A stretch of 54,255 nucleotides of DNA from an archaeon (GCA_043810775.1 JBDRNU010000011.1:1-54255), one strand, 5' to 3'; positions 7,236 through 35,423 are shown, numbered from the stretch's first letter. Translations and numbers: made by a program. Notes: generated by a model not told the origin, from the letters alone.

Positions 7236-8162
7236 TTATGGGAGTTTTTCTATTTCTTTTATCTCACCACTATAAGGATTTATCTCAATTTTTCTACGAG
7301 AAGCAGGAACTATAATATCTTTATATTCTGGCTCTACCCAGACATCCTTGTAATATCCCTCTTTAACTTTTACTTTAGTCTTCTTTGTAAAAGTATCTTT
7401 AGTATCATCCCAGTGTTCTTTATTAGTAAATGGTAAAAATAAAGTTCCCATTATAGTTCTAGGAATCCCATACATTATTCCATTTTCAATATCAGCTACC
7501 TCTCTTTCTTCATACTCTGGCTCTACCCATTGCTTATCATAATGCCCTTCACTAATTAATCTTCTTTCAACTCTCTTAGAAACATTCTCAACCGCAGTAT
7601 AATTAAAAGATTTTATATCTTTAAGCAATTTTTCCTCGCCAGGAAAATCATCTTTTTTAATATCAGAATATAATCTTCTTATATTTGATTGAATTTCACC
7701 AGGAGGAAATCTGGCTGGACTTTTTTTAATTTGATCAAATCTTTCCATATATTCAGATTTTTTGTTTAGTTTTGCAATTTCTGGGTCTATAGTCTCATCA
7801 TCATATCTAGTAACTAACTCACCAAGTGAACCAAACCTGCCAGACCATTCTTTAGCTAATTTTTTCTGAAGTTCTTCGCTAATTCTATCAGCTTCCTGAA
7901 TATTTCCAGCTGAAACACTCTGTTCAACCTGTTTAAATTCACCGTGATACTCTAAATATCTTTTCTGCCTCCTATCCTGAGTGTCCTTTACACCAGCAAA
8001 AGCTATTAATGAAGCTAATCCAATATAAAATAATAAATGTAAAGTTGGTGCAAAATCAAATTTACGTTTAGCTTTAATTGGGCTAACTTCCGTTTTAGGC
8101 TGTTCAGATTGTTCAATTTTTCCAAAATTTACTAACTCTTCCTCTAGATTATCCATCTTCAA
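7236..8162 (-). CDS. NLEEEL-leader, single-TM protein of the PY(S/T)GE family
   Basis: MDNLEEELVNF (likely ATG at 8156); TM LHLLFYIGLASLIAFAGV; internal repeat EG(H/Y)YxxxWVEPEY; ends INPYSGEIKEI. Confidence 0.8.
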   Translation of the reverse strand: MKMDNLEEELVNFGKIEQSEQPKTEVSPIKAKRKFDFAPTLHLLFYIGLASLIAFAGVKDTQDRRQKRYLEYHGEFKQVEQSVSAGNIQEADRISEELQKKLAKEWSGRFGSLGELVTRYDDETIDPEIAKLNKKSEYMERFDQIKKSPARFPPGEIQSNIRRLYSDIKKDDFPGEEKLLKDIKSFNYTAVENVSKRVERRLISEGHYDKQWVEPEYEEREVADIENGIMYGIPRTIMGTLFLPFTNKEHWDDTKDTFTKKTKVKVKEGYYKDVWVEPEYKDIIVPASRRKIEINPYSGEIKEIEKLP

Positions 8163-8997
8163 TCAATCCATACTTTTTCCACATAGGAACTTTTCTTGCA
8201 ATTCTCTCTGCCTCTTCCCTACTCATTTTCCCATTATTTACATCATCTTGCATAATCCCCATAATACTTTCAAAATCTTCATCGCCCCTATGCACTTTTC
8301 TCATGCTTTTTTCAGCTTTACGGGAGAAAAAACCAGGAGTATAACTTGAAGAAGTAGTTGGAAAACCACTACTCTCTGTCTGCCTCATTAAATCAAAAGC
8401 TTTAGGAAGATTTCTGGAAATTTCATCTATTTTCCTCCAATCTAAATCCTCACCTTGATCTGCTCTATCTGATAAACCTTTAATTACATGAGGTAATAAA
8501 CCAGGATCTACCACTTTTCCTAAATTTTCCTGAATTTGAGATAATAAAGGGTTCGAAGTTCTTGGAGGAATATAAGGTTCTGCAGGTTTACCATATAGCA
8601 CTTCATCTGCAAGTTTTTGATACTCAGGAGAAATGCCAGGAATTCGTGATTTTAGCTCAGGATTTATAAGTTCAATCTTCTCTCCAGAAGGTGTATGGAA
8701 CATATCTATAGGTCTAAGTTCTGGTTCAGGAAAAATATCTCTAACTTCATCTGAATCAGGAAAGCCATATCTTTTCCTGTAATCTCTAACAGCTTCGATT
8801 GCTTTTCTTAGAGCAGTATCTTTATCTGGTTTTCCAGTAACTCCATCATAATCTCTCTTTGCTTTTTTAAATTCCTCAGGAGTAGGACTTTCAGCTTCTT
8901 TGCTCAATTCAACTAGCTCTTGTTCTAGATTTTCAGGCTGTTCAGATTGTTCAATTCTTCCAAAATTTACTAATTCTTCCTCTAAATTTTCGCTCAT
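8149..8997 (-). CDS. Soluble hypothetical protein with two tandem NLE(E/Q)EL leaders
   Basis: MSENLEEELVNFGRIEQSEQP-ENLEQELVELSKEAE; no TM. Confidence 0.8.
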   Translation of the reverse strand: MSENLEEELVNFGRIEQSEQPENLEQELVELSKEAESPTPEEFKKAKRDYDGVTGKPDKDTALRKAIEAVRDYRKRYGFPDSDEVRDIFPEPELRPIDMFHTPSGEKIELINPELKSRIPGISPEYQKLADEVLYGKPAEPYIPPRTSNPLLSQIQENLGKVVDPGLLPHVIKGLSDRADQGEDLDWRKIDEISRNLPKAFDLMRQTESSGFPTTSSSYTPGFFSRKAEKSMRKVHRGDEDFESIMGIMQDDVNNGKMSREEAERIARKVPMWKKYGLIEDG

Positions 8998-9027
8998 TTT
9001 CTTATAAATCTAATTTTATATTTAATT

Positions 9028-9972
9028 TTATCTTTTTGCAAAAAAATCCTGCACGTTTTTATTACCATATAATTTAAAATCAGTAATGTTTATTCCAATT
9101 TTATCCCCATATCTATCAGAAACATCTTCAGACTCTCCTTTAAAAGGATTACATTTATGTATCCTTTTTATTCTTTTATTGAAACAATAAGTTCCAGCCC
9201 AACTTAAAGTAGCTAAAGGGGCAAAATTTAATTCAACTTCAGGACTAATATAAGTGAATCCTTTTATCTCGTCTAATAATTCTTGATAAGCTCTTTGATC
9301 AGATTCTTTATAAATACTTTTTACAAGTCCTCTAATTTCATCATAGATCTTTGCATCATCAATTAAAACAGAGTTTCGCCCCACTGAAGACATATAAAGC
9401 TGACAATTAAGCGGTTTCTTAATCTCCTCAAACCTTCTCTGATACCAAGTATTTACCTTAGTATGCTCTGGTTTTTTTTGGTCAACTTCAAATTCAAGTC
9501 TAGACTTCTCCATAAGCTCAGCTTTTCTTGCTTCATCTCTTGCCAGTACTTGATCATACCAACTGGGAGTTTCTTCTTTTGTTTCCCGAGTAATAGGATT
9601 TAAAGTTTCATACTCCTTTTTTTCAGCTGGCTTAGGTTTTTCAAACTTTTCAGGTTCAGGAGGTTTAATTTTCTCTTCTAGTTTGCTCTCTTTAACAGGC
9701 TCTAATCTTGCTATTTCAGTATCTTTAGGTTCATACTGCTCCACAATAGGGGAGCTTTCATGAAACATCCTCTTTTTTATCGCATAATCCATACCACAAA
9801 CAAAGGCAAACCCAAAAAGAGCCACCAATCCAGCAGGAATTAAAGTCTTCCAATTAGGACCTTTTTTATATTTTTTAATTTCTATTGGTTCAGATAAAGA
9901 TGTTGAAGGTTCTAAATTTTTAGCTTCCCTTGCCAGTTCAGCTAGCTCTTGCTCTAGATTATCTTTTTCCAC
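9028..9972 (-). CDS. NLEQEL-leader, single-TM protein (paralog of 21244-22191)
   Basis: GTG start; KKGPNWKTLIPAGLVALFGFAFVCGMDYA; FAPLA...NKRI...NPFKGE. Confidence 0.8.
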   Translation of the reverse strand: MEKDNLEQELAELAREAKNLEPSTSLSEPIEIKKYKKGPNWKTLIPAGLVALFGFAFVCGMDYAIKKRMFHESSPIVEQYEPKDTEIARLEPVKESKLEEKIKPPEPEKFEKPKPAEKKEYETLNPITRETKEETPSWYDQVLARDEARKAELMEKSRLEFEVDQKKPEHTKVNTWYQRRFEEIKKPLNCQLYMSSVGRNSVLIDDAKIYDEIRGLVKSIYKESDQRAYQELLDEIKGFTYISPEVELNFAPLATLSWAGTYCFNKRIKRIHKCNPFKGESEDVSDRYGDKIGINITDFKLYGNKNVQDFFAKR

Positions 9973-10630
9973 TTTCTCTAATGTTCCTCCCTATAATTTC
10001 CTCAGAAGAATAAAAAGGTCTGACTCTGATTTCATCATAATAAGTAAATCCTACATTATCTTTTGGAAAAGATAAAGGTCTATAGCTAGAGGGATTAAGA
10101 ATTATATTAGGTGAAAAAGCAACAATACTTGCAATATCATGAACTAGATTTCCTGGATTAAGATGATTCTGAGTTACTTCTTCATAACCTTGGAAGAAAT
10201 TTCTCTTAATATATTCAAAGCCTTTCAATCTCTCTAAATATTCTTTTGAATAAATATTAGAATCTCTTCTAAGCTTAGAAGTTAATTCTCTAAAAAGAAT
10301 ATTCACATTATCGGGCTTATTCTGCTTGATATAGTATATTATTTTATCATCATAACTTCCATATCTTTTCTTAAATTCTGAATAAGCCATAAGATTATCA
10401 GAAGACTCAACCAAATCCTCCACCCCCTTATTCTGAAAACCTTCAATTCCAATATCTTCCACAATTGGAAATCTAGTCCATTTAACTATTCTAGAATAGA
10501 CAAAATCTCTGGTATCATGGGTTTCATAACTTGAATAAGAATTAGTCGTGATAGTTCTAGTAGCACTTGCGCATGAATTGCTTCCTATCAATATAGTTGC
10601 AAGTAGGAAATTTAGTAATTTATTTTTCAT
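9959..10630 (-). CDS. Putative lipoprotein, PY(T/S)GE family
   Basis: MKNKLLNFLLATILIGSNSC lipobox-like signal; YYDEIRVRPF C-terminus. Confidence 0.8.
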   Translation of the reverse strand: MKNKLLNFLLATILIGSNSCASATRTITTNSYSSYETHDTRDFVYSRIVKWTRFPIVEDIGIEGFQNKGVEDLVESSDNLMAYSEFKKRYGSYDDKIIYYIKQNKPDNVNILFRELTSKLRRDSNIYSKEYLERLKGFEYIKRNFFQGYEEVTQNHLNPGNLVHDIASIVAFSPNIILNPSSYRPLSFPKDNVGFTYYDEIRVRPFYSSEEIIGRNIRESGKR

Positions 10631-11268
10631 TCTACCTTAACCTCTTTATTTATTATTATCTCAGTTCCATAATAAGGGTGAACTCTAAAATCATCGTAAA
10701 ATTTTTCCCTAGTAGGTTTTTTCCTAATGCCTGATGAAGCTGATTTATCCTCTTTTAAATAAAAATATAATTGATAAGGCAACATAACAACATCCAAAGC
10801 CATTTTCTCCAATGAATAATCATACTCTTTTTTCCAAACTGCTCCAACTTCAGCATCATAATAAACTCTTTTTACATATTCAAAATTTTTTACCCTTCCC
10901 AAATAATTTTGAGCATGCTTATTAGGATCTTTCTTCAATTCATCAACCAAAGCCATAAAAGTTTTATTCCCTCTATCTAATCTCTCATTTGAATAATGAT
11001 CTATAATCTCTTCAACACCAGCAGAATATTTTTTTCTAAACTCAATATACTCTAAATAATCATCAGTAGTTTCAATTAATATCTCCACATTACTTGAACT
11101 TAAAGAAGAGGCATTAGTAATGCTAATGTCAGTAACAGAAACTATATCAAATCCCAAGACATCGCTTTTTTCAACTTTCTTATCTCTTGGACCAGAGTAG
11201 GTAGTAGTACACGAAGTGCTCACAGCTAAAGTGAGTGCAAGTAGAAAATTTAGTAATTTACTTTTCAT
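10627..11268 (-). CDS. Putative lipoprotein, PY(T/S)GE family
   Basis: MKSKLLNFLLALTLAVSTSC; LIETTDDYL; FYDDFRVHPYYG; ends VKVE. Confidence 0.8.
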   Translation of the reverse strand: MKSKLLNFLLALTLAVSTSCTTTYSGPRDKKVEKSDVLGFDIVSVTDISITNASSLSSSNVEILIETTDDYLEYIEFRKKYSAGVEEIIDHYSNERLDRGNKTFMALVDELKKDPNKHAQNYLGRVKNFEYVKRVYYDAEVGAVWKKEYDYSLEKMALDVVMLPYQLYFYLKEDKSASSGIRKKPTREKFYDDFRVHPYYGTEIIINKEVKVE

Positions 11269-11906
11269 TCTACCTTAACCCTCTCCCTTACAACTTCCTC
11301 TTCCCCAGTATAAGGTCTGACTCTGATTTCATCATAATATTTCTCTTTAAGAACATTTTTTGAATACGAACCAGAACTAGTTTCCTTAAAAAATAAAAGA
11401 TAAAATGGTTGCCAAGGTATACCTGCAATATCCATAATAATTTCATCCCAAGTATAATTTTTATCCTGCTCCCAACCTTCTCCAATTTCAGCAGAATAAA
11501 ACACCCTTTTAGTATATTCAAATTCTTTTATTTTCTCCAGATACTGCTGAGCATATTGATTATTATCCTTTCCAAGTTTTTTAGATAATATCATGACTAA
11601 CTTATTAGCTTCGTCAAACTTATTTTTTTTGAGAAACTCTAATATATCCACAGCATCGTCAGAATACTCCTGCCTAAATTCAATATATCCTAAATAGCTA
11701 TCAGTAGTCTCAATCAAGCCTTCAACTCCTTTTTTCTTAGGAGGTTCTAAGCTTATTGAAATATCTTCTGCCGAAATAAAGTCATAAGTTAAAATATTTG
11801 TGCTTTGAACTTCCTTATTTCTAGGAGCATCATATATAGTGGTAGCGCATGAAGTAGTTCCAACCAATATAGTTGCAAGTAGGAAATTTAGTAATTTATT
11901 TTTCAT
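11265..11906 (-). CDS. Putative lipoprotein, PY(T/S)GE family
   Basis: MKNKLLNFLLATILVGTTSC; GVEGLIETTD; YYDEIRVRPYTGEEE; ends ERVKVE. Confidence 0.8.
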   Translation of the reverse strand: MKNKLLNFLLATILVGTTSCATTIYDAPRNKEVQSTNILTYDFISAEDISISLEPPKKKGVEGLIETTDSYLGYIEFRQEYSDDAVDILEFLKKNKFDEANKLVMILSKKLGKDNNQYAQQYLEKIKEFEYTKRVFYSAEIGEGWEQDKNYTWDEIIMDIAGIPWQPFYLLFFKETSSGSYSKNVLKEKYYDEIRVRPYTGEEEVVRERVKVE

Positions 11907-11909
11907 TCT
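11838..11909. repeat. 72-bp exact direct repeat (second copy 13203-13274) encoding the lipoprotein signal MKNKLLNFLLATILVGTTSCATT
   Basis: Base-by-base comparison of the two copies; degenerate copies lie at the starts of the 9959, 10627, 11903 and 15590 ORFs. Confidence 0.9.
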
Positions 11910-12559
11910 ACTTTTACTCTCTCCCTAATAATTGTTTTTTTTCCACTATAAGGATTGATTTGTACTTCATCATAATACTTATGTATAATCTCTTTTTCTT
12001 CAAGATAAGGAATGTCATTTATATCCCACTCACCAAATAGAATACCCCAAGCAAAAGCATAAGTCATTAATAAATGTGAAGGAGTATCTAACAAACTAAA
12101 ATCATCAGTAAATCCAGTCTTCCTTCCAATTTTCATATCATAATAAACTTTCTTCTTATATTCAAAATTCTTTATCCTTTCTAAGTAATCATGTGCATAA
12201 ATATTATCATCACACTCAAGTTTATCAGCCAATCCTCTAACTAAAATATGTGCTTCAATAAAATCATTATTTTCTAAACTCTCCTGAATTCTAATAGGAT
12301 ATCCATAATACTCTTGTCTAAATTCAAGATAATCTAAATAATCCTCTGTAGTCTCAATCAAACCCTCAACTCCTTCCTGATTAGGAGACATCAAACTTAT
12401 AGAGATATCTTCTGAAGAAGTAAAATTATGATCAGTCATTTGAAGATCAAAAGTTCCCTCACGTTTAGGAATCTGATAAATAGTAGCACACGAAGTAGTT
12501 CCTACTAACAAGCATGCAAGTAAAAATGTGAATAATTTAGTTTTCATTTTATTTTTCAA
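11903..12559 (-). CDS. Putative lipoprotein, PY(T/S)GE family
   Basis: LFTFLLACLLVGTTSC; GVEGLIETTEDYL; YYDEVQINPYSG; ends ERVKVE. Confidence 0.8.
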   Translation of the reverse strand: MKNKMKTKLFTFLLACLLVGTTSCATIYQIPKREGTFDLQMTDHNFTSSEDISISLMSPNQEGVEGLIETTEDYLDYLEFRQEYYGYPIRIQESLENNDFIEAHILVRGLADKLECDDNIYAHDYLERIKNFEYKKKVYYDMKIGRKTGFTDDFSLLDTPSHLLMTYAFAWGILFGEWDINDIPYLEEKEIIHKYYDEVQINPYSGKKTIIRERVKVE

Positions 12560-13271
12560 ATCTCTCTTGCTCCCTTAAAAAAGATTGTAAATCATAATCA
12601 TCAAATTTAAAACCATCACGAGGAATCTTATTTTCAAAAACATCAAGACTCATACCAATAAATTGAGGATATGACTCTGAAATATCAGTTGTCTCTCCAG
12701 TATAAGGATTGTACCTGTAAAATCCTACAACTGTAGAATTATCCGGATATGCTTCTGAATCAAGCAAGCTTTTAACCATCTTCCCCCCAAAAGTATATCC
12801 AAGATTTAATCTGACATTATAATACTCAAATTCCCTTATTTCATTAATTAAAGGAAGAAAGCACTCCAAACACTTTTCCTCAGAGATGGTTGCTAACAAA
12901 GAATAAACATATCTAGTAATTTGGTTATCGTCAATGTAAGTTATTTGCTTTTCCTCAATATCATTATAATCATAATCGTCATTTAATCTATTCTGAATCC
13001 TATTAAACTCTCCCCTAAAAACCCTCATCCTTCCAGAACTCTCAAAAATCTCATCTAATTTCTCAATACTATGATCAAGCTCACTTATTAATTCATCTAC
13101 TCTCTCTTTTTTTGGAGGCCTTACTCTTGTCTTTTTTTGTGCAGGTTCTTCAAGTGGAAGTGAACTTATTTTTGAGACTTCCTCATTTCCATTAGTAGGA
13201 TAAGTGGTAGCGCATGAAGTAGTTCCAACCAATATAGTTGCAAGTAGGAAATTTAGTAATTTATTTTTCAT
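12549..13271 (-). CDS. Putative lipoprotein with body related to 9028/21244 paralogs
   Basis: Signal identical to that of 11265; IREFEYY...YNPYTGETTDISESY aligns with IKGFTYI...CNPFKGESEDVSDRY of 9028. Confidence 0.8.
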   Translation of the reverse strand: MKNKLLNFLLATILVGTTSCATTYPTNGNEEVSKISSLPLEEPAQKKTRVRPPKKERVDELISELDHSIEKLDEIFESSGRMRVFRGEFNRIQNRLNDDYDYNDIEEKQITYIDDNQITRYVYSLLATISEEKCLECFLPLINEIREFEYYNVRLNLGYTFGGKMVKSLLDSEAYPDNSTVVGFYRYNPYTGETTDISESYPQFIGMSLDVFENKIPRDGFKFDDYDLQSFLREQERFEK

Positions 13272-14071
13272 TCTTCTTCCCTCAAAACTTTTTCAATTCG
13301 AGATATCCCATCAGCATCTTGTTTTTTCCTTATTTCTTCCATTTTTTCATCTTCCTTAATCACTCCACCTGATTTCTTAAACTGGTATCTCTTTATAGCA
13401 GATGAGTAAATTCCATAATCCCAAGAGTTAATACGTGGAGATTTTAATTTCCTTGATAATTTGACTGCTTTTTCACAATGCTCAATTGCATCATCAAAAT
13501 TCCCCCTAAGAGCATCAATCTTTGAAAGTGTAAAATAAAGGGCAGGACAATCATCATTATAACATACAGCTCTTTCAGGGTTCTTACCTTTGCTTGCATA
13601 CGACTCAATAGCTTTACAATTTCCAGTAGATTCACATTCATCATGAAATTCTAAAGATTTTCTAATCATTTTCTCAGCTCTATCTAAATACCTATAATCG
13701 TAAAAAAGTTCAGCTAAATTACTATAAACAGGTAAGCAGTCTGGGTCTAGTTCTAAAGCTTTCTTATATTCTCTTAAAGCCTCATCTGGCCTTTTGCTTA
13801 CCAAACTAAATCCTTTATTATTATGTTGAATTGCTTCATCAACTATTTTATGTTTTCTTCTTTCCTCTTTAATCCTTCCTTCAATTCTATTAATGTACTC
13901 ATCTATTTCTCTTATTAGTCTGTCTATATCTTGATTTGATTGTACCAAGTAAATTCTGGTTTGATCCTGCTCTAAATTCCTTTCCAAGACCCTCTCTAAC
14001 TCTCCCGCCTCCACCCTCCCACCAGCTAATAAAACTCCTGCAAATACTAAGGGAATTAATTTATTTTTCAT
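13268..14071 (-). CDS. Secreted TPR protein
   Basis: Signal MKNKLIPLVFAGVLLAGGRVEA; TPR motifs EALREYKKALELDPDCLPVYSNLA and DDAIEHCEKAVKL. Confidence 0.8.
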   Translation of the reverse strand: MKNKLIPLVFAGVLLAGGRVEAGELERVLERNLEQDQTRIYLVQSNQDIDRLIREIDEYINRIEGRIKEERRKHKIVDEAIQHNNKGFSLVSKRPDEALREYKKALELDPDCLPVYSNLAELFYDYRYLDRAEKMIRKSLEFHDECESTGNCKAIESYASKGKNPERAVCYNDDCPALYFTLSKIDALRGNFDDAIEHCEKAVKLSRKLKSPRINSWDYGIYSSAIKRYQFKKSGGVIKEDEKMEEIRKKQDADGISRIEKVLREEE

Positions 14072-14077
14072 TCTACT
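14024..14077. repeat. 54-bp exact direct repeat (second copy 15546-15599) encoding VE-stop/MKNKLIPLVFAGVLLA
   Basis: agctaataaaactcctgcaaatactaagggaattaatttatttttcattctact at both positions; spans a gene junction. Confidence 0.9.
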
Positions 14078-14745
14078 TTTACTCTCTCCTTTAATATTTC
14101 TTCTTCTCCCGTATAAGGTCTGACTCTGATTTCATCATAATAATAAACAACAATAGGTGACATTTCAAAACCTTTCTTTCTGAGTTTTTCTATCATAGGT
14201 TCAATAAATTCTTCGTTACCAGAATAATAATTAAAAGTAGATTTCTCATAATAAGAAGACTCAGAAGTTACTCTACTCTTCTCCCATATTTCACCTACAT
14301 CAGCAGAATAATAATCTCTCCTCACATATTCAAAATTCTTAATTGTCTCAAAATATTGTTGAGCATAAGGATTTTCATCTTTTTGAAGTATCCTCCCCAA
14401 ATCTCTCACTTGCCTATCTAGTGTAGATAAGTTATTTCGTCTTTCAGAGCAATTTTTAATAATATTAGTAATCCTCACAGCATCATCAGAATACTTCTTT
14501 CTAAATTCAATATATTCTAAGTAATTATCAGTAGTCTCAATTAATCCTTCAACTCCTGTTTGTTTTGGAGGTTCTAAGCTTATAGAAATATCTCCAGCTG
14601 ATACAATTTCACTATGCTGAATTATAACCTCTGCCTTTAACTGAATATTTCTTGGAGTAGGGGTAACTCTCTCACAGGAAGCACTCCCAGTCAAAACAGC
14701 TGCAAATAACAAAGCTGTTAGACTTTTTCCCATTGTAAACTTCAT
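14068..14745 (-). CDS. Putative lipoprotein, PY(T/S)GE family, with a different signal peptide
   Basis: LLFAAVLTGSASC; body close to 15590; YYDEIRVRPYTGEEEILKERVKVE. Confidence 0.8.
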   Translation of the reverse strand: MKFTMGKSLTALLFAAVLTGSASCERVTPTPRNIQLKAEVIIQHSEIVSAGDISISLEPPKQTGVEGLIETTDNYLEYIEFRKKYSDDAVRITNIIKNCSERRNNLSTLDRQVRDLGRILQKDENPYAQQYFETIKNFEYVRRDYYSADVGEIWEKSRVTSESSYYEKSTFNYYSGNEEFIEPMIEKLRKKGFEMSPIVVYYYDEIRVRPYTGEEEILKERVKVE

Positions 14746-15593
14746 CTCAAACCCCTCCCTAAATATCTATCACTAAATAAAGTATCTTTATACCCTACAC
14801 ACAAATCTCTATATCCTCTCAGCTCCTTTTGCAAATCTTCTAAATCCCTGACACTCTGATTAGGATATCTTAATTCCTCCCCAATAACAGCTATCCTATC
14901 ATTATATTGCTGATATCTACTTTCAGCTAGTTGTTTTAATTTAGAATAAACTTCTTCCCTGGTATCAATCACAGATGAGCATAAAGCCTTGTTATAAGAA
15001 TAAGGCTCCTGAGTAATTAACACAGACATCTTCTGCAATAACTGATCATAACTTATCAATCTATCAATATTTTCTTCCTTAATATCTTTCTCATATGATA
15101 CTGCTATTTTCTTAAAATCATCTACTAACTCCTGAATCTTCTTTAACTCTGGAACTATTACTTGAGATTTATAGCTTGAAACAGAATCTCTTAAATTACT
15201 AATTCCCTGATACCCTTGAACTCTACTAACAACTTGCGAATCATAATCAGGGCTAAAGCTATTTAATCTTGAGCTTAATTCTTCATGCAAGCGGCTAGAT
15301 TCATAATAATCTTTTTTTTCTACAGCTCTCTTTACCATAAAAAACTGCTGACTTAACTCTCGAACAGTGCTCTCTTCTTTCTTTATACCCTCCTCTTCAA
15401 CTTTAACTATTTTTTTTGATAACTCGCCAATGTATTCATCAACTGTTATTATTAAAGTATTAATTTCCGAACTAGCTTCTATCTGATTATTACTAAGGGG
15501 AATGCCTTGAAGCGCTTTTTCCAACTCCCCTGCCTCCACCCTGCTAGCTAATAAAACTCCTGCAAATACTAAGGGAATTAATTTATTTTTCAT
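14742..15593 (-). CDS. Secreted helical/coiled-coil protein (related to C-terminal part of 16318)
   Basis: Signal MKNKLIPLVFAGVLLASRVEA; ends LFSDRYLGRGLR, versus LFSERYL in 16318. Confidence 0.78.
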   Translation of the reverse strand: MKNKLIPLVFAGVLLASRVEAGELEKALQGIPLSNNQIEASSEINTLIITVDEYIGELSKKIVKVEEEGIKKEESTVRELSQQFFMVKRAVEKKDYYESSRLHEELSSRLNSFSPDYDSQVVSRVQGYQGISNLRDSVSSYKSQVIVPELKKIQELVDDFKKIAVSYEKDIKEENIDRLISYDQLLQKMSVLITQEPYSYNKALCSSVIDTREEVYSKLKQLAESRYQQYNDRIAVIGEELRYPNQSVRDLEDLQKELRGYRDLCVGYKDTLFSDRYLGRGLR

Positions 15594-16321
15594 TCTACTC
15601 TAACTCTCTCCTTTAGAACTTCTTCATCTCCAGTAAAAGGTCTGACTCTGAATTCATTATAATACTTTTTTTGAACAGTGCTTCTAGTAGTTGGACGAGG
15701 GTCATAATTTTCACTAGATCCACCTTTCTTTACATGATCCCATTGTTCAGAGAACGCTTTTCTTTCCTCAGGTAAGATCAAAAGAGGAATCTCTACAGCA
15801 GTGTAAATTCCCATAAAAGTAGCAGCATGAACAAAAGCCAGAGGATTAAACCTTTTATTAAGATTACCCCTCTCTCCAATTTCAGCAGAATAATAATCTC
15901 TCCTAATATATTCAAAATCTTTAATCTTTTCAAAATACTGCTGTGCATATTGGTTTTCATCATTCTCAAGTCTTTTTCCTAAATCTCTTACTAATTTATC
16001 AACTGAAACTAAGGAATCTAATCCTTTAGAGCAATTTTCAATAACAGTCATTATATCCTTTGCATCTTTGGAATACTCTTTCCTAAATTCAATATATTCT
16101 AGATAATTGTCAGTAGTTTCAATTAAGCCTTCTACTCCTTGATTTTTTGGAGCTTCTAAACTGATAGAAATATCTTCAGCAGATATAACTTCACTATGTT
16201 GAAAAATATTTTCATCATACTGCCTGACATTTCTAGGGCTAGAATAAGTAGTAGCGCAGGAAGTGGCTCCAACTAGAGTAAGTGCAAGCAGGAAATTTAG
16301 TAGTTTATTTTGATTCATCAT
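15590..16321 (-). CDS. Putative lipoprotein, PY(T/S)GE family
   Basis: NKLLNFLLALTLVGATSC; long hydrophobic insert; YYNEFRVRPFTGDEE. Confidence 0.8.
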   Translation of the reverse strand: MMNQNKLLNFLLALTLVGATSCATTYSSPRNVRQYDENIFQHSEVISAEDISISLEAPKNQGVEGLIETTDNYLEYIEFRKEYSKDAKDIMTVIENCSKGLDSLVSVDKLVRDLGKRLENDENQYAQQYFEKIKDFEYIRRDYYSAEIGERGNLNKRFNPLAFVHAATFMGIYTAVEIPLLILPEERKAFSEQWDHVKKGGSSENYDPRPTTRSTVQKKYYNEFRVRPFTGDEEVLKERVRVE

Positions 16322-17481
16322 AAATACCTCTCACTGAATAGGGGAACAGGATTCCTAGTATATTTTTCCATTTCAGATTTCACACTTGCTAATTCATTTC
16401 TTAATGATTTTAATTCATCTGCACTTAAATCATTCCTGCTGATTCTCTTTCCTAAATCACTAATTTTTGTTTCATACTCTCTCTGCTTAACTCTAGCGAA
16501 TGTTCTTAAAACCAATACTACAGCTACATACTGCTTTTGAAATTTAGGTTTTAGTTCAGGATAATCACTAACTAAAGAACTTTGAAGCACAGAAGACAGT
16601 TCATTATCAACTCTGATTAAATTTGCAATATCTCTTCCAATAATATACTTATCATAATTTTGAGAAGCTTGCTGCAACTCAGCACTAATTTCAGATATTC
16701 TTGCTGTATGAGTTCCTAACTGGGTTTTTCTATATTCCTGAATTACATCACTAAAAGAATTTAAGCTACTAATTCCATTTTCTCTTAATTTCCTATTAAG
16801 CTCCGAATTCTCAGTTAAAAATGCTTTATTATCATAAACCAAAGAATTACTAGTTAATTGAGATAATAAAGATTCAATTGCAGCATCTGCTTCAGCATAA
16901 TACTTCCTATTAGCTGACTGTTTAGCTGAATCAAATTTATCCAAAAGTTTTGCAACTAGATCTTGCTCAGCTTTAATGCCTTTGAGATGGGCTTGTTCAA
17001 TCTCCCTAACCCTAGATTCCTTATCTCCAAACTGGACTCTTTCGCAAAAAGCCATTAATTCATCTAAATTATTTTTCCTCTCCTTATAATCTTTTTTTAA
17101 AGATATCTTGGACAATTCTGTAGAAACTTTTGAGCTTATAGTAGTATCAATTTTTTCATCTAGCTTGCCATAATCAGGAAGCAGCCCTAATTCAATTGCT
17201 TTTTTATCTTCACTTGCATCATCAATTAATCTTTCAATCTCTTCATCAGCTAAGTCTAGTTTACCTTCTTCTAAAAGGAATGAGGCAGTGTCATATCGAG
17301 TTTTATAATCTCTAATTTTCCTTTCATCTAAAGAGCTTCTAACTTGCGGAAGAGATAGTATTCCTACGCTTAATATTCCTACAGCAGCTAAACCTGTAAT
17401 TAGCTTAGCTAAAGGAAATTTTGGCTTTTTCTCTTCAATGCCCATCAATTCAACCAAATCTTTTTCTAAACTATCTTTCAT
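16318..17481 (-). CDS. Leader (DSLEKDLVEL), single-TM coiled-coil protein
   Basis: Leader variant, TM LITGLAAVGILSVGILSL, helical body. Confidence 0.8.
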   Translation of the reverse strand: MKDSLEKDLVELMGIEEKKPKFPLAKLITGLAAVGILSVGILSLPQVRSSLDERKIRDYKTRYDTASFLLEEGKLDLADEEIERLIDDASEDKKAIELGLLPDYGKLDEKIDTTISSKVSTELSKISLKKDYKERKNNLDELMAFCERVQFGDKESRVREIEQAHLKGIKAEQDLVAKLLDKFDSAKQSANRKYYAEADAAIESLLSQLTSNSLVYDNKAFLTENSELNRKLRENGISSLNSFSDVIQEYRKTQLGTHTARISEISAELQQASQNYDKYIIGRDIANLIRVDNELSSVLQSSLVSDYPELKPKFQKQYVAVVLVLRTFARVKQREYETKISDLGKRISRNDLSADELKSLRNELASVKSEMEKYTRNPVPLFSERYL

Positions 17482-17950
17482 TTTGCCCCCTTATTTTATT
17501 ATAAAATTTAACTGTGGCTTGAGCATTATAAACTACATTCGCACTATAACAAGAAAAACTAAAATTAGAAAATTGAGCTTGAAAATCAACAGAATCACTA
17601 ATCTTTAAAGCTGAATGATTTCTCTCTCTCGCTTCTTCTAAAGCCTTCTTCTCAAGTTTTTCTTTTAATTTTGCTAAGTGTTCTGCTTCAGCTTTAATAT
17701 AAAACTTTTGAGTCCCAAATGCTCTATCTATAATGTTTCCATGTATATAGTGAAACATTTGACCAGCTGGAGGGGTTCGAGCAGGTACTAAATCAACTTT
17801 ATTACGAATTGAAGTGACACTAATTCCTTTAGTAAGAACATTCTCATAGTCTTCTGGAACTTGATCTCTCCCAAAAAACATAATCGGTTGACTCACTTCA
17901 TCCTCTACTTCTCCAAGTTTCGTTAACTCTTCTTCAAGATTTTCTCCCAT
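17471..17950 (-). CDS. NLEEEL-leader small alpha/beta protein (family with 19034, 20005)
   Basis: PIMFF...KALEEARERNHSAL...YNAQATVKFY shared with paralogs; SD-like GGAG upstream. Confidence 0.78.
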   Translation of the reverse strand: MGENLEEELTKLGEVEDEVSQPIMFFGRDQVPEDYENVLTKGISVTSIRNKVDLVPARTPPAGQMFHYIHGNIIDRAFGTQKFYIKAEAEHLAKLKEKLEKKALEEARERNHSALKISDSVDFQAQFSNFSFSCYSANVVYNAQATVKFYNKIRGQNER

Positions 17951-18023
17951 TTGAATCTCCTATCACCTCTTTCGCCTCTCTCTCCAATTGACTCAATTCT
18001 TTTTCTAAGTTTTTATTTTCCAT
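17934..18023 (-). CDS. 29-aa leader-only mini-ORF MENKNLEKELSQLEREAKEVIGDSNGRKS
   Basis: Manually translated; fills the gap between 18013 and 17950, overlaps both neighbours and carries the family leader. Confidence 0.65.
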   Translation of the reverse strand: MENKNLEKELSQLEREAKEVIGDSNGRKS

Positions 18024-19050
18024 TATCCACCCCCACCTGACCAGAAGACTCAAAATTCAGGGGCCTGCGCATTAAAGAATCTGAATCTCCCATATTTCTC
18101 GCACCCTGCCTCAAGCTTAAGTCAGTAGTCATTCTCCAATCCATTAAATCTCTAACAGGTGCATAATTTGCATCTAGCTCTAAAATTTTCTCAACTTGAG
18201 TAGTAGCATTATAGCGATCCCCTTTATCAAGCAAAACTCTTGCAAGGTTAAAATGATACTCAACATTATCTCTATCCAATCCTAGCGCAGTTTTATAAGC
18301 CTTAATAGAAGCTTCAAGATCACCTTTCTCCCTATAAACATGCCCTAAATTACTATAAGAAGGAGCATGATCAGGAGCAAATTCCACACATTTTCCATAA
18401 GCTGTAATTGCTTCATCAAACTTACCTTTTTCAAAAAAAGCATTTCCTAAATTATTATAAACAGGTGCATAATTTGCATCTAGCTCTAATGCTTTTTCAT
18501 ATTCTTTTACTGCTTCATCAAACCTCCCTCTTTGATACAAAACAATTCCTAAATTATTATGGGGAGGTGCTAGATCTGGTCTAAGTTCAATTGTTTTTCT
18601 AAGTATACTTTCAGCTTCACTAAGTTGACCATTGTTTTGTAAAGCATTTCCTAAATTATTGCAAATCACAAAATTATGGGGGTCATATTCTAAAGCTTTT
18701 TTATAATCTTTGATTGCCTTATCTAATTTACCCTCTTTAACAAGATCTTCAGCTATATGGAAATAATGATCTCTTCTTGCAACATCTATTTTATGCTCAT
18801 TATTTACTTCTTCTGTTTGCTCAAGAATCGCTCCCCCCCTATTAGGATTATCATTTCTAGCTTTATTCCAGGCAGGTACAGTAACAGCTGCTATCATTCC
18901 ACAAACTCCCAATACTGCTGCTAACTCAACAGCTCTAAATCCCTGATGTTTTTTATGTTTCTTTTTAGGCTTCCTTTTAATATACTTTTTAAAGCCTCCT
19001 ACTTCACCCAGTTCAGCCAGCTCTTGTTCTAAATTATCTGTCATTTTCAC
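18013..19050 (-). CDS. NLEQEL-leader TPR protein with prepilin-like hydrophobic segment
   Basis: Likely ATG at 19044; QGFRAVELAAVLGVCGMIAAVTVPAWNKAR; about 6 TPRs; 30-bp internal repeat at 18154-18183 and 18460-18489. Confidence 0.85.
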   Translation of the reverse strand: MKMTDNLEQELAELGEVGGFKKYIKRKPKKKHKKHQGFRAVELAAVLGVCGMIAAVTVPAWNKARNDNPNRGGAILEQTEEVNNEHKIDVARRDHYFHIAEDLVKEGKLDKAIKDYKKALEYDPHNFVICNNLGNALQNNGQLSEAESILRKTIELRPDLAPPHNNLGIVLYQRGRFDEAVKEYEKALELDANYAPVYNNLGNAFFEKGKFDEAITAYGKCVEFAPDHAPSYSNLGHVYREKGDLEASIKAYKTALGLDRDNVEYHFNLARVLLDKGDRYNATTQVEKILELDANYAPVRDLMDWRMTTDLSLRQGARNMGDSDSLMRRPLNFESSGQVGVDNGK

Positions 19051-19603: not shown

Positions 19604-20018
19604 TTTTTTCTTTCAATTTTTTTATACGTTGATCTGGAGATATATTTAACCTTTTATCCTCAGGATTTGTCCAATAAATATCTCCATGAGTATCTGAATA
19701 TTCTTGATAAAAAGGGCATGATCCATAAGGGAAAAATCTCCTTTTCTTAAAAAGACCTTTCGAATCCTGCTTAAGAGCACATCCTTTATGATAAATAATA
19801 AGACCTACATCTTTAGAATAATCTTCTCTTCTTGTATCTGTTTTTTCAACAAAAAATTTGCAATTAACCTCTCTCTCAAAAATCTCAATTCTTCCATTTC
19901 CTGTTTTTCCCTCAAGAACAGAACAGTGCATTTCTATGGGATAACTTCTAGTTTCTTCAGGCTGTTCAACTTCCCTGCTTAATTCAGCCAGCTCTTGTTC
20001 TAAATTATCCATCTTCAC
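19590..20018 (-). CDS. NLEQEL-leader small Cys-containing protein
   Basis: MDNLEQELAEL; four Cys (HC, NCKF, GCAL, CPFY), possibly metal-binding. Confidence 0.75.
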   Translation of the reverse strand: MKMDNLEQELAELSREVEQPEETRSYPIEMHCSVLEGKTGNGRIEIFEREVNCKFFVEKTDTRREDYSKDVGLIIYHKGCALKQDSKGLFKKRRFFPYGSCPFYQEYSDTHGDIYWTNPEDKRLNISPDQRIKKLKEKNEDG

Positions 20019-20580
20019 TACCTACCTGATCATAAAAATAAATAGGAATTTTGCAAGAATATTTAAGAGTTCCTCTTGGATGCCCAAGATCCAGAGTACC
20101 TCTGCTAAAATCAGAAATTGAAATTCTTGTATTAGAAAAAATTTCAGTTTCATTATAAAACACAGCGTCATGTCCTCTATTCCTAGCTTCATCTCTCGCC
20201 ACCCTATAAACTTCTTCTTCTAAATCAATAAAATGTTTTTCCTGAAAATCATCATAATAAAAAGGCTTATTATGAATTTCATTACTCTGTGTTAATAAAA
20301 TCGAATTTTCATTTAATTTAGAAACTTCATCACTATTATAAGTTAAAGAAATATTAATATTTACACATTCTATACTAGCTCTTAATTCATACTTTCCTGC
20401 TTTTTCATAGTTATCTAAAACTTCTTCTTCATTTCTAAATACTAAAGGCTCTCTTGGCTTTCTAGAAATATCACTCACTATTCCCAATACTTTCTGTATT
20501 AACTCTCTAGCTGTTGCATCTTCTAACTGTCCAGCTTCCCTGCTTAATTCAGCTAATTGTTCTTCAAGATTTTCGCTCAT
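20005..20580 (-). CDS. NLEEQL-leader small alpha/beta protein
   Basis: PLVFR...VARDEARNRGHDAVF...YSCKIPIYFYD. Confidence 0.78.
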   Translation of the reverse strand: MSENLEEQLAELSREAGQLEDATARELIQKVLGIVSDISRKPREPLVFRNEEEVLDNYEKAGKYELRASIECVNINISLTYNSDEVSKLNENSILLTQSNEIHNKPFYYDDFQEKHFIDLEEEVYRVARDEARNRGHDAVFYNETEIFSNTRISISDFSRGTLDLGHPRGTLKYSCKIPIYFYDQVGSEDG

Positions 20581-21254
20581 TTTGGTAAAAATATCCTCCC
20601 TCCCCTCTGCTTTTCAGGCCATCCAATTCCTTTTATTCCTTCCTTAAAAGCTCCAACAAAAGTTTGTTCCCTATCAGGATCCATATATTTTGGCTTGAAT
20701 CTTTTATGCTTGGGCAATACTATTTCAGGCACATCAACTCTTCTTCCAATAGGATCAAACCTTAATTTTGTTTCCTCATCCCGAAAAGGAAATCCCAATA
20801 CTAAAACTCCTTGTTCATTTGTCCTTAAAAACCGAAAACCTACTCCCCACTCATTAAGTGTAAATAGATTTGACGCAGATCTATTATCTCTATAAGTCGT
20901 CACTAAAACCTGCCATTCAGAACCAGCGTCATGAGAATTTGCTTTTATTAACAAATCTTGATAATCCTTATTATCTTCATAACTTTTCCAGATTTCGAAA
21001 GCATCAGAAAACATTTTTTCTGCCTGTCCCCTATTCCCTTGATTAGAGTTTATTACACCTAGATTATAATGGGCTTCTGCAAATTCAGGTTCAAGTTGAA
21101 TTGCTTTTTCATATTCTAAACTAGCCATATTAAGAGCTGCTGATCTCTGATATTCATAAGCCTGTCTAAAATGCTCTAACGCTTGGGGATTTCCACTAGT
21201 AATATTTTCTATTCTTGCCAACTTTGCAAGCTCAGCTTCTAAATTATTCTTCAT
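20577..21254 (-). CDS. NLEAEL-leader TPR protein
   Basis: YEKAIQLEPEFAEAHYNLGVI TPR followed by an unknown C-terminal domain. Confidence 0.8.
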   Translation of the reverse strand: MKNNLEAELAKLARIENITSGNPQALEHFRQAYEYQRSAALNMASLEYEKAIQLEPEFAEAHYNLGVINSNQGNRGQAEKMFSDAFEIWKSYEDNKDYQDLLIKANSHDAGSEWQVLVTTYRDNRSASNLFTLNEWGVGFRFLRTNEQGVLVLGFPFRDEETKLRFDPIGRRVDVPEIVLPKHKRFKPKYMDPDREQTFVGAFKEGIKGIGWPEKQRGGRIFLPK

Positions 21255-22191
21255 TTTTATCCTCTCTTAAAATATCTTGTAATCTTTTAGAACTTGGAAA
21301 AGAATTAATATCTTTTCCAAAAACACTATCAAATCTTCGCTTCTTTTCGCTTTTAGCTGTGAAATATTTAGATCCAAAATGAGTGGTTTTCCCAGAATAT
21401 ATATTATGTTCTGTAACACTATTGTCTGAGTGTCTGGAATAAATGACCTTACCAGAATAGGGGTTTACTTCAATAACCTGGATTATTCTTTTGTTATATT
21501 TTTTCTTTCCTGAAAATAAACTAGCTAAAGGAGCGAAACTAACCTTAAAGTAGACATCAACGTAATTAAATTCTTTAACTTCTTCTAGTAATTCTTGAAA
21601 ATACTCCTGATTTGACTCTTTAGATATATCTTCCGCCATTGCTCTAATTTCAAGTTGAATTCTTTTTTTATCAACCAAATTTGTTGCGTTGATAGGAAAG
21701 AGTTTATCTTCTAACATTATCTCAGGATTAGTTTCTTCCTTAATCTCATCTAATCTGCTCCAATATTGTTTAAGTCTCTCTCGCAAATCGTTTTCCCCAT
21801 ATCTCCCCACTGCTAATTCTCTTTCTTTTTCCCTTGAAGCAGGAGACTTTAAATCTACCTCTTTTTTGTTTGAAATAGCTAGTTGAGACTCTTCATTTTT
21901 CTCAGGCTCATATTGCTCAGGTTTACCCCGACTTAATATAATATTTTTAGATTGGTTTAATAAGTTTTTATTTTGCTCTGCAAAGTGATTTATCTCATGA
22001 GATTTAATTTTTTTCGCTGCATAATCCATCCCGCACACAAATGAAAATCCAGCAAGTGCTACCAATCCTGCTGGAATCAATGTCTTCAAATTAGGACCTT
22101 TATTTTTTTTAATTCCTGTTTGCTCAATTGAGTGTATTATTGGTTCTACTCTTCCAAATTCTTTAAGCTCTTCCTCCAAATTATCTTTCAT
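21244..22191 (-). CDS. NLEEEL-leader, single-TM protein (paralog of 9028)
   Basis: KGPNLKTLIPAGLVALAGFSFVCGMDYA; FAPLA...NKRI...VNPYSGK. Confidence 0.8.
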   Translation of the reverse strand: MKDNLEEELKEFGRVEPIIHSIEQTGIKKNKGPNLKTLIPAGLVALAGFSFVCGMDYAAKKIKSHEINHFAEQNKNLLNQSKNIILSRGKPEQYEPEKNEESQLAISNKKEVDLKSPASREKERELAVGRYGENDLRERLKQYWSRLDEIKEETNPEIMLEDKLFPINATNLVDKKRIQLEIRAMAEDISKESNQEYFQELLEEVKEFNYVDVYFKVSFAPLASLFSGKKKYNKRIIQVIEVNPYSGKVIYSRHSDNSVTEHNIYSGKTTHFGSKYFTAKSEKKRRFDSVFGKDINSFPSSKRLQDILREDKNEE

Positions 22192-22853
22192 TCTAAAACC
22201 TCCTTTTCAAATCTCCCCCCACCATTCCTATAAAGTCTAATGTCCACATCCCAAGCTCCTTGATTATCAACAAGTCCTCCAGAACGAACATCTTCATTCA
22301 TCCCCAAATAAAGCCTACCATTAAGAGGTACATCAAACCTTTTCAAAGGGCCAATATCAAAAGTAAAAGAACCGGGAGTGTAAGGAATATCAATCATTCC
22401 AACTAAACCATAAGCATTATGTCCTGGCGCTAAAAAATTTATATCTTTAGTAATCCTTTCTCCTTCTGGACCTATTGTATAATGAGCCAATCCAATTTTT
22501 TTAAACCTAACCTTTCCTCTTGCATCAAAATCAATTAAGTCCCCTTTTATTACATCGATTCCAGTATCAGTCCAGTCATCTCTCTTTGAATCAATCTTCA
22601 AAGCATGAGTTAAATGTAATCTTGGGCCATTAATTTGATTATTCTTATCAGAATATTCTATTATTTTGGGTGAATTTTTATTAAGTTCATAAAAAATCTC
22701 ATTAACTAAAGAACTTACAGGATCAACCAAAATTGCTCCAAAAACACTTAAAGTTAATACAATACTTGGCCAAAAAAGGCAACCTCTTTCCTTTCTTGGC
22801 TTTTCTTGATGACTTAATTCAGCTAATTCCTGTTCTAAATTTTCATTTTTCAT
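22188..22853 (-). CDS. NLEQEL-leader, single-TM protein with PA-IL/LecA-like lectin domain
   Basis: WTDTGIDVIKGD...ARG...GLVGMI...GRLYLGMNED...DNQGAWDVDI pattern. Confidence 0.72.
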   Translation of the reverse strand: MKNENLEQELAELSHQEKPRKERGCLFWPSIVLTLSVFGAILVDPVSSLVNEIFYELNKNSPKIIEYSDKNNQINGPRLHLTHALKIDSKRDDWTDTGIDVIKGDLIDFDARGKVRFKKIGLAHYTIGPEGERITKDINFLAPGHNAYGLVGMIDIPYTPGSFTFDIGPLKRFDVPLNGRLYLGMNEDVRSGGLVDNQGAWDVDIRLYRNGGGRFEKEVLE

Positions 22854-34997: not shown

Positions 34998-35180
34998 ATG
35001 GCAATTGAAGAGATTATTGAAAAAACTAGTGTAATTAAAGTTAATTCTGAAAGCTCAGATTATCAGCCATATACTAATACAACTTTTAAAAAATCACTTA
35101 AGAGTTATATAAAAAACTGCTTTGAATTATTTAATGAAAAGGGAATTCTAAAGTATATTTCTGTTCCTTCTTTTTCATGA
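34998..35180 (+). CDS. Small hypothetical protein
   Basis: 60-aa ATG ORF divergent from the operator module and filling intergenic space; no motif. Confidence 0.4.
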   Translation: MAIEEIIEKTSVIKVNSESSDYQPYTNTTFKKSLKSYIKNCFELFNEKGILKYISVPSFS

Positions 35181-35423
35181 ATACCAATTATTTTCCTCTT
35201 CTAATCGGATTTCAATAGGTTTTACTTGACTTTTAAATAATTTATATAGCTTTATCCTCCTTCCCAACTTAGCTTCTTCTTCCTCACTTAATGGGGAAGG
35301 ATTGAATTGATAAGGCCAAGGTATAATTAAATCTCTAGAAGTTGTTTTTCTAGATTTTCCATCCTCCAAATATTTTTCACAAAAATCTCTAAGTTTTTCT
35401 TCAGCTTCAATTTCATCTATCAT
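35175..35423 (-). CDS. Small protein similar to the N-terminus of 33631-34878
   Basis: MIDEIEAEEKLRDFCEKYL versus VDEIEAEGKLKEYYAKYF; ATG 35423 preferred over the 35510 start. Confidence 0.6.
   Translation of the reverse strand: MIDEIEAEEKLRDFCEKYLEDGKSRKTTSRDLIIPWPYQFNPSPLSEEEEAKLGRRIKLYKLFKSQVKPIEIRLEEENNWYS

Follow-up and report, generated by a model that had tools for sequence, protein, structure and literature searches.

Examination of a 54,255-nucleotide stretch of archaeal DNA (GCA_043810775.1, JBDRNU010000011.1:1-54255; hereafter the window, which is the entire contig C11 of a 995 kb genome in 26 contigs with 33% GC) reveals an N-terminal peptide tag of about 20 residues that heads 13 open reading frames (ORFs) with otherwise diverse bodies. 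These ORFs form the variable tail of a gene island of about 31 kb, or about 3% of the 1 Mb genome. The tag is a real, statistically solid, protein-level N-terminal module. We propose, with a probability of roughly 45%, that it is a cytoplasmic docking tag, which tethers swappable surface-exposed and cytosolic proteins to one component of the island; here we infer both that the tag binds and what it binds. The tags, given with the ORFs that carry them in window coordinates, are as follows:

22803..22853, minus strand: tag on 22188-22853, followed by a transmembrane (TM) span and a body for which LecA/PA-IL-like is a lead; the first gene after the kinase gene, with an ATGA overlap
22144..22191, minus strand: tag on 21244-22191, followed by a TM span and a family A body
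21207..21254, minus strand: tag on 20577-21254, a soluble TPR protein
20533..20580, minus strand: tag on 20005-20580, a soluble protein of family B
19968..20018, minus strand: tag on 19590-20018, a soluble protein of 142 residues
19553..19603, minus strand: tag on 19034-19603, a soluble protein of family B
18997..19050, minus strand: tag on 18013-19050, followed by a Lys/Arg-rich linker, a TM span and a TPR body
17934..18053, minus strand: mini-ORF made of a tag and about 12 residues, overlapping 18013-19050 at its end and 17471-17950 at its start
17903..17950, minus strand: tag on 17471-17950, a soluble protein of family B
17434..17481, minus strand: tag (SLEKDL variant) on 16318-17481, followed by a TM span and a long helical body
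9922..9972, minus strand: tag on 9028-9972, followed by a TM span and a family A body
8893..8997, minus strand: two tandem tags on 8149-8997, a soluble, Pro-rich protein
8112..8162, minus strand: tag on 7236-8162, followed by a TM span and a body; at the DNA level this tag and the first one of 8149-8997 share 92% identity over 61 nt

Alignment of the leaders shows a common layout, in which one to four residues are followed by an asparagine (once a serine) and then by L-E-x-E-L-x-x-[L/F]-[G/S/A]-[R/E]-x-[E/A], with a proline usually 14-19 residues past the Asn. The leucines at i, i+4 and i+7 belong to an acidic amphipathic helix, which the initial Asn or Ser likely caps, and a hand count of the 13-residue core gives 4-6 acidic and 0-2 basic residues. 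Beyond the tag the proteins continue with a flexible linker rich in Pro, Ser and Glu. The mini-ORF may encode a peptide that is nothing but a tag, or represent a frameshifted second tag comparable to the in-frame tandem pair of 8149-8997.

The pattern M-x(1-4)-[N/S]-L-E-x-E-L-x-x-[L/F] occurs 16 times in the genome. An earlier reading of the window, made from the sequence alone (the sequence-only reading), had placed the motif on 13 ORFs, with two copies on 8149, and it was indeed recovered at each of these starts, giving 14 copies in the window; two more head ORFs of 386 and 269 residues that lie among housekeeping genes on another contig, C7. A six-frame search of the whole 995 kb with the looser expression [NS]LE..L..[LF] returned 45 matches, 14 of them the window tags and 2 the N-termini of the C7 ORFs. 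When this expression was applied to a crude set of 1069 ORFs of at least 80 residues, 14 of its 23 matches began no more than 13 residues from the start, a region that holds 4.8% of the positions (binomial P = 1.8e-13); the motif is thus not as common at random N-termini, which was one of the conditions named as refuting the sequence-only reading. The N-terminally matched genes are also strongly clustered, with 12 of the 14 inside 15.6 kb of the 995 kb (P = 2e-20). A profile built from 14 leaders (alignment A1) finds 16 copies in its own genome at E values of 1.5e-11 to 3e-5, and one of the C7 copies is independent of the building of the profile. No Pfam family covers the first approximately 20 residues in any of the tagged window proteins of at least 140 residues (12 of 12 scanned), and no significant NCBIfam (two tagged proteins) or PHROGs (three tagged proteins) family lies over the tag; the only library overlap is a PHROG of unknown function on residues 1-45 of 19034-19603 (E 0.0056).

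The bodies behind the tag are as diverse as had been claimed, in that BLAST relates them only within small families (9028 and 21244, family A; 17471, 19034 and 20005, family B) and otherwise through the tag alone. A word-index homology search with the family B protein 19034-19603 found only the protein itself among near-length candidates. The earlier count of six TM-anchored and six soluble carriers plus the mini-ORF agrees with the distribution of hydrophobic spans. Among the body types then named, TPR repeats are borne out by Pfam in 18013-19050 and 20577-21254, and the lectin stays a lead, the structural neighbour of the 22188-22853 body in the Atlas being LecA/PA-IL at a TM-score of 0.52, without a Pfam match.

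Nei-Gojobori counts over the nine-codon tag core, pooled over the 16 leaders, gave a proportion of synonymous differences (pS) of 0.81 and of non-synonymous differences (pN) of 0.20, that is, a pN/pS of 0.24 with the synonymous sites saturated. Four to five different codons are used at the invariant Leu positions, in proportions close to the genome's own, and several at the invariant Glu positions. The DNA upstream of the tagged start codons shows no conservation; compared as repeats in the DNA, the tags share 60-81% identity over 53 nt, except for the 7236/8149 pair noted above. Given the saturated synonymous sites, the low pN and the unconserved upstream DNA, the constraint must act on the peptide, and conservation at the level of DNA only, the second condition named as refuting the sequence-only reading, does not describe the data. 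Three DNA runs yielded short, mostly identical contigs at a depth of 2-4, with no usable strain variation.

A further constraint arises at the gene junctions. In 7 of the 13 tagged genes the preceding gene ends within the tag, its stop codon falling across the D/N-N/S codons, and the genes overlap by 11-17 nt; the stop is TAA (GATAAT), or TAG (GATAGT) where Ser replaces Asn. This places the first few residues of the tag, and only these, under an additional constraint from dual coding and translational coupling. The stop-in-tag junctions are those at 8149, 9959, 17471, 19034, 19590, 20005 and 21244, and the upstream C-termini end in EDG from the shared letters. Such overlaps would be expected if the tag had no common function and were inherited from the start of a founder gene, having been carried onto new bodies by tandem duplication and recombination and kept through translational coupling at the overlapping gene starts. 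The tagged genes are tandem, the near-identity of the 7236 and 8149 tags marks a recent duplication, and the signal-peptide DNA of neighbouring lipoprotein genes is likewise locally homogenised (up to 99% over 76 nt, 11838-11913 versus 13203-13278). Nevertheless, we regard this origin as a sufficient explanation to be quite unlikely: the overlap accounts for the first 2-4 codons only, whereas L-E-x-E-L-x-x-L lies downstream of it with saturated synonymous sites and the pN/pS given above; two tagged genes lie on another contig among housekeeping genes; and tag-like heads recur after the kinase gene in other islands, as described below.

The orientation of the tag relative to the membrane can be read from its neighbours. 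Within the window, six tagged proteins have one hydrophobic span that begins 24-43 residues in, and six have none; of the two C7 proteins, one has a span at 106-124 and the other lacks a span. Interspersed in the tagged stretch is an array of genes without the tag, whose products carry lipobox or Sec signals, as read from sequence:

9959..16321, minus strand: untagged array within the tagged stretch, with seven lipobox lipoprotein paralogues and two Sec-signal proteins
9959, 10627, 11265, 11903, 12549, 14068 and 15590, minus strand: the lipobox paralogues of this array
13268 (with TPR) and 14742, minus strand: the Sec-signal proteins of this array

According to BLAST, the bodies encoded by this array are homologous to those of the tagged TM proteins: tagged 9028 pairs in its body with the lipobox lipoprotein 12549 (E 5e-6), as tagged 18013 does in its TPR body with the Sec-signal protein 13268 (E 9e-11). 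Provided that these homologous bodies are outside the cell, the tag on the membrane proteins is predicted to face the cytoplasm, with the bodies outward. Counts of Lys and Arg around the span agree with this orientation in three proteins, being nine before it in 18013, four before and none after it in 22188, and four before and one after it in the C7 protein; for the remaining tagged TM proteins they are neutral. A hydrophobic-span scan of the soluble tagged proteins revealed no signal of any kind. Since the tag would be cytoplasmic and the TM proteins have their own signal-anchor, it is probably no membrane-targeting or export signal. The proposal of the sequence-only reading, a sorting tag read by a common partner, is therefore narrowed: sorting is not supported if it means export or targeting to the membrane, and a common reader is still what fits best, given that the tag goes together with one conserved gene island.

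Comparison with signal types leads in the same direction as the earlier statement that the tag is unlike Sec or Tat signals. A Sec, Tat or lipobox signal was rejected for an acidic tag without a hydrophobic run, in proteins whose spans begin only 24-43 residues in (106 in the C7 protein). A class III signal of the prepilin or archaellin type was also rejected, the leaders being acidic and 24-43 residues long and the pattern absent from four of the six TM proteins; a class III-like appearance is confined, as read from sequence, to 18013 (…QG/FRAVE…) and 22188 (…RG/CLFW…).

The island that the tag accompanies runs from window position 37872 down to 7236, with every gene on the minus strand except that for TrmB. 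From its head it encodes two TM proteins, an Mrr-like protein, a small TM protein, a 111-residue partial copy, a 415-residue helical protein and an AAA ATPase; it continues with a P-loop NTPase, an 801-residue coiled-coil/transglutaminase-like protein, TrmB, a 729-residue protein (P729), a PP2C phosphatase and a Hanks-type kinase, and ends in the tagged genes interleaved with the seven lipoprotein paralogues and two Sec-signal proteins. The genes ahead of the tagged tail are:

35175..37872, minus strand: island head, encoding the 111-residue partial copy, the small TM protein, the Mrr-like protein and the two TM proteins
33631..34878, minus strand: long helical protein, always encoded just ahead of the AAA gene
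32003..33595, minus strand: classic-clade AAA ATPase with a private helical N-domain and a GxxGxGKG Walker A
30576..32006, minus strand: P-loop NTPase, the best-conserved marker of the island
28174..30579, minus strand: coiled-coil protein with a C-terminal transglutaminase-like core (Cys/His/Asp triad read from sequence)
27422..28177, plus strand: TrmB-family regulator (Pfam)
25070..27259, minus strand: P729, with an LDH/MDH-like Rossmann domain and a C-terminal WD40-like beta-propeller
24267..25076, minus strand: PP2C phosphatase (Pfam)
22850..24283, minus strand: Hanks-type Ser/Thr kinase (Pfam), without a TM span

The transglutaminase-like protein bears on whether the tag could be a cleavable leader for non-classical export or processing, with that protein as the processing enzyme in the manner of double-glycine leaders. 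Its transglutaminase (papain-like) fold contains Cys, His and Asp, it has a faint LapG-like match (E 0.0018, 17.5 bits against a cut-off of 320), and six tagged proteins have no other signal. Double-glycine leaders, with a consensus of LSxxELxxIxGG, are likewise N-terminal, acidic and helical, about 15-20 residues long, and precede unrelated cargo, and the ELxxL core of the tag loosely resembles theirs. However, the register of the tag differs from that consensus, Gly-Gly follows the helix in only 1 of the 16 tags, and the island encodes neither a C39 peptidase nor an ABC exporter (Pfam), on which grounds a double-glycine/PCAT leader was rejected. Moreover, half of the tagged proteins have a membrane anchor that leaves the tag on the cytoplasmic side, and the homologue of the transglutaminase-like protein in the island of the genome G361 aligns to the N-terminal part only and lacks the core. 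We therefore hold a cleavable leader to be highly improbable.

Among the island components, the module of P729, PP2C and kinase is the most likely dock, its genes lying always immediately upstream of the tagged ones, with the AAA ATPase next. The former would take first place on phyletic grounds and the latter second on mechanistic precedent, while third place falls jointly to self-association, to a cleavable leader and to a duplication relic without function. In the mechanism that we envisage, a modular N-terminal peptide of about 20 residues would be kept by selection on the protein; it would sit in the cytoplasm on single-pass N-in proteins with diverse outward bodies, and likewise on soluble proteins; and all its carriers would be supplied as the fast-changing tail of the accessory island. 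AKAP helices, which dock protein kinase A, and Box1 motifs, which dock JAKs, offer a functional analogy, in that diverse proteins with one short cytoplasmic helix could reach a single kinase hub; in keeping with this, the island kinase lacks a membrane span and the tagged genes directly follow its gene. The likeness is one of arrangement, and the tag has no sequence or fold relation to either motif.

P729 is modelled at a pLDDT of 62, a weaker model, in which the LDH-like Rossmann half matches 1a5z (E 1.6e-8) and the WD40-like propeller matches Tako8, Fbw7 and beta-TrCP (E about 1e-10). The AAA profile matches VAT/p97 (E 5e-22) and Vps4 (E 2e-17) in the PDB, as well as CdvC and spastin; the model (pLDDT 84.6) predicts with confidence a helical N-domain of its own, about 190 residues long, and matches p97, Rix7, Msp1, Rpt and spastin in Foldseek, with TM-scores by query of no more than 0.40. 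These properties allow a different reader, namely the AAA ATPase with its helical N-domain, or the adjacent helical protein, which might recognise the tag and so lead to unfolding, membrane extraction or remodelling of the carriers. Pup with Mpa, and substrates with Msp1 or Cdc48, work by ATPase grasp of a free terminus; the AAA protein resembles such substrate-threading ATPases in the matches just given, and the tag stands at a free terminus followed by the flexible linker rich in Pro, Ser and Glu. We nonetheless consider recognition by the AAA ATPase unlikely. Mini-islands that possess the AAA gene without the kinase show no evident tagged genes, and hence the tag tracks the kinase module and not the AAA gene; further, the Walker A ends in GKG without the usual Thr or Ser after the Lys, which makes for an atypical ATPase. 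Across the AAA family (alignment A4), a Gly takes the place of this Thr/Ser, and the Walker B Asp-Glu is invariant.

The tag and the island were both followed in other genomes. A search with the leader profile, along the lines suggested by the sequence-only reading, finds the 16 copies in the genome itself and no credible match in 40 related genomes (best E 0.005), and a strict degenerate pattern has 10 matches in the genome itself and one each in 2 of the 40 relatives, neither of which looks like a tag. Against 1.84 billion representative proteins, the profile has 10 matches at E no greater than 0.001, all of them the window's own proteins. The tag pattern, searched in one genome per species, gave 51 stretches, all unrelated internal or other motifs, which read from their flanking residues as Ruminococcus-type GreA, ClpB, XseB and PspA C-termini; in metagenome contigs it gave at least 119 stretches, at least 90 of them GreA-type, with none tag-like among the matches listed. 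In its exact form the tag thus appears private to this genome. The island is likewise scarce: the AAA query has AAA-domain matches in 3 of the same 40 relatives, none full-length (own family 0 of 24), two full-length matches in 400 genomes of the class (G361 and G324) and 12 homologues in metagenomes, and the P-loop query finds 1 of 400 genomes of the order (own family 0 of 355) and 24 among 400 genomes drawn from across the phylum, every one labelled 'same class'. Together these counts, which come from samples with many incomplete genomes, describe a patchy accessory element of a minority of Woesearchaeota-type (DPANN) archaea.

Comparison of 13 related loci (375 ORFs) shows the same core order through PP2C in G361, G829, G881, G344, G806, G378 and G862. 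The ORF after PP2C is a kinase in six of these islands, by BLAST in G361 and G829 and by Pfam in the other four (two above and two below the gathering score, E no greater than 1e-5), and the contig of G344 ends after PP2C; TrmB was confirmed in three islands. The genes that follow the kinase elsewhere begin with N-terminal helices resembling dialects of the tag, in many cases succeeded by a basic stretch and a TM span, and neighbours there are alike only in their N-terminal part, that is, in the tag or the tag with its TM span (residues 1-93 in G829, 14 residues in G881 and 13 residues in G361). With only the helical, AAA and P-loop genes, the mini-islands of G874 and G330 lack a kinase, and no tagged gene is evident in the part of them retrieved. 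For a rank test, the group was set by position only, by taking from each of seven islands the two ORFs that come after the kinase (14 in total), and scored with a matrix made from the tags of the present genome. These 14 outscore the other 361 ORFs (Mann-Whitney P 1.9e-4 with 9 columns and 3.5e-4 with 13 columns); seven of them stand in the top 20 of 375, and four of the seven islands have a member there (P 0.003). The tags of different islands are thus likely, if not provably, akin.

In some other islands the AAA protein itself has an N-terminus that reads like a tag. The N-termini at L201:2822-4384 (G344), L207:6552-8117 (G862) and L211:17127-18548 (G330) read 'NLEDR-V/L-L' or 'NELEERL', and that of G330 ranks 7th of 375 by the tag matrix. 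In G028, a 558-residue ORF (L017, G028:C13, 8395-10071) occupies the position that P729 has in the fuller islands, beside a kinase and near the AAA gene, and begins with the tag-like 'KNQDLEGRLREAARN' just ahead of a Rossmann-type glycine motif, as read from sequence; a BLAST search with P729 gave no match to it at E no greater than 0.01.

Several results weigh against a docking tag with a common reader. No binding partner emerged from any analysis; co-folding of the tag with P729 (alignments A1 and A2), which tells neither for nor against binding, gave an ipSAE of 0.00 in both runs, the fold of the tag itself being uncertain. None of the 16 leader-profile matches falls on a core gene, so that homotypic coupling to the core in the style of effector-associated domains (EADs) is not supported. 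The tag in its form is found in one genome only, which makes a conserved reader hard to argue from co-variation, and part of the conservation of its early residues is owed to the upstream stop codon in the D/N-N/S codons of 7 of the 13 genes. The homology of tags across islands rests on the rank test, with individual scores of 3-12 bits: a hidden Markov model of the leader has no significant match on the N-termini of the 375 ORFs from the 13 loci (best 7 bits), the post-kinase paralogue pairs of G862 and G829 are not independent in the test, and three of the seven islands (G806, G378 and G324) do not rank high.

The closest known concept would seem, by analogy, to be the EADs, small and mostly helical non-enzymatic modules of NTP-dependent conflict systems for which a role as coupling adaptors has been proposed (Kaur, Burroughs, Iyer, Aravind 2020, PMC7159879; the points compared are those of its passages considered here). 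EADs and the tag alike are modules at the termini of many diverse proteins beside a conserved core, with copies closest to lineage-specific paralogues and extra genomic copies only where the core is present; this type of spread fits the tag, which occurs on 13 adjacent ORFs and twice on C7, with none credible in the 40 relatives without a full-length AAA match. The two differ in that the defining trait of EADs is a copy fused to a component of the core, whereas none of the tag's profile matches lies on a core gene; in that an EAD is a folded domain and the tag a single helix of about 20 residues; and in that many carriers of the tag are not enzymes but surface proteins. Neither is the island core (AAA, P-loop, transglutaminase-like protein, P729, PP2C and kinase) among the EAD cores mentioned in those passages of PMC7159879. 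Such a 'core copy', which an EAD-like system would require and which is not seen in the present genome, could be present in other islands in the form of the tag-like AAA N-termini.

Since EADs are proposed in the same source to couple via homotypic contacts, it is conceivable that tags associate with one another as short coiled coils, assembling membrane and soluble carriers without a separate reader. The Leu spacing is heptad-like, and the tandem-tag protein and the tag-only ORF could bridge or cap bundles of tags. On balance we judge self-association to be distinctly improbable, because stable coiled coils are usually longer than two heptads and, with 4-6 acidic against 0-2 basic residues in the core, like would probably repel like unless a basic partner or cations intervened.

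The likeness that the sequence-only reading had seen to ESCRT-III MIM1 and to PspA is not supported. MIM1 is a C-terminal helix of Snf7-fold ESCRT-III proteins that binds the MIT domain of Vps4, and it shares with the tag the character of a short amphipathic Leu-rich terminal helix, with a classic-clade AAA nearby that has Vps4 and CdvC among its PDB matches. In contrast to MIM1, the tag is N-terminal or near-N-terminal in 16 of 16 cases and stands on unrelated bodies, the carriers having no Snf7 or PspA match. The AAA ATPase of the island matches p97/VAT better than Vps4, and no MIT domain was recognised on it, Pfam finding only the AAA domain and no MIT entry appearing among the listed whole-protein Foldseek matches. 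The sole tie to PspA is a chance match of the pattern to apparent enterobacterial PspA C-termini.

Extending the docking proposal, one may imagine a soluble hub of kinase, PP2C and P729, perhaps with the AAA and P-loop ATPases, which a lineage-specific 20-residue 'address' helix would wire to fast-diversifying surface proteins (TPR, lectin-like and of the lipoprotein family) and cytosolic proteins. It would amount to a split array of many receptors on one kinase, possibly for sensing or holding a host, with each lineage that has an island evolving its own dialect of the tag; as a whole we think this picture rather doubtful. DPANN archaea have tiny genomes and are, as far as known, attached to other cells, and little is known about the way in which they sense a host and keep hold of it. 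Should the docking tag be real, the peptide would serve as bait for the reader of an undescribed archaeal signalling or assembly machine, and would exemplify short, fast-evolving address peptides in archaea, with a logic like that of adaptor domains in bacterial conflict systems. Were it only a duplication relic, the island would still be a new conserved gene cluster worth naming, with its P-loop marker in 24 of 400 genomes. Terminal adaptors or docking tags are a known kind of module, to which the tag would belong. Neither the tag nor the island was found in the literature on N-terminal motifs of DPANN surface proteins or on effector-associated domains, which is not proof that they are unpublished, and the supplement of PMC7159879 might list related architectures.

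The organism that carries the island is probably a DPANN-type archaeon, as suggested by the TrmB-family regulator in the window, a tRNA-Thr(TGT) of 86 nt (2085-2170, plus strand), a length that suggests an intron, a thermosome gene and an L10e-like gene on contig C7, as read from sequence, and the source label 'Candidatus Woesearchaeota archaeon' on the closest full-length homologues of one island protein. No flanking direct repeats marking an insertion site were evident among the 20 largest repeat families shown.

The remaining core proteins gave fewer leads. The P-loop profile has only Walker-A-level matches in the PDB, and the protein matches PHROG 12057, of unknown function (E 7e-9). An Atlas search with the helical protein 33631-34878 (mean pLDDT of the model 0.54) returned generic long-helix neighbours only; the 111-residue ORF (35175-35510) is a partial copy of its N-terminus (29% over 78 residues, E 6e-5). 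PDB sequence searches with single proteins gave nothing useful, and PADLOC, NCBIfam and PHROGs scans of core or cargo proteins gave nothing specific, the kinase drawing generic kinase models; the scans also gave faint matches to mad8 and LmuB. A second shared N-terminal motif, 'DEIEAExKLxxFxxKY(F/L)', heads 33631-34878, 35175-35510 and 30576-32006 (minus strand), and the P-loop proteins of most islands begin with a related 'K-S/T-x-x-G-K-x(5)-Y-F-G', as read from sequence. The seven lipoprotein paralogues (9959-16321) have in common a C-terminal 'YYDE-I-R-V-R-P-Y-T-G-E-E' motif, and one homologue of theirs is located in the G361 island. The catalytic loop of the island kinase, as read from sequence, is HRDLTPVN, with Thr instead of the usual Lys, and a paralogue at C3:12497-13791 is split in two ORFs, that of the C-terminal domain lying ahead of that of the kinase domain. 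Outside the island, the window also contains an ORF of 1906 residues at 48062-53782 (minus strand).

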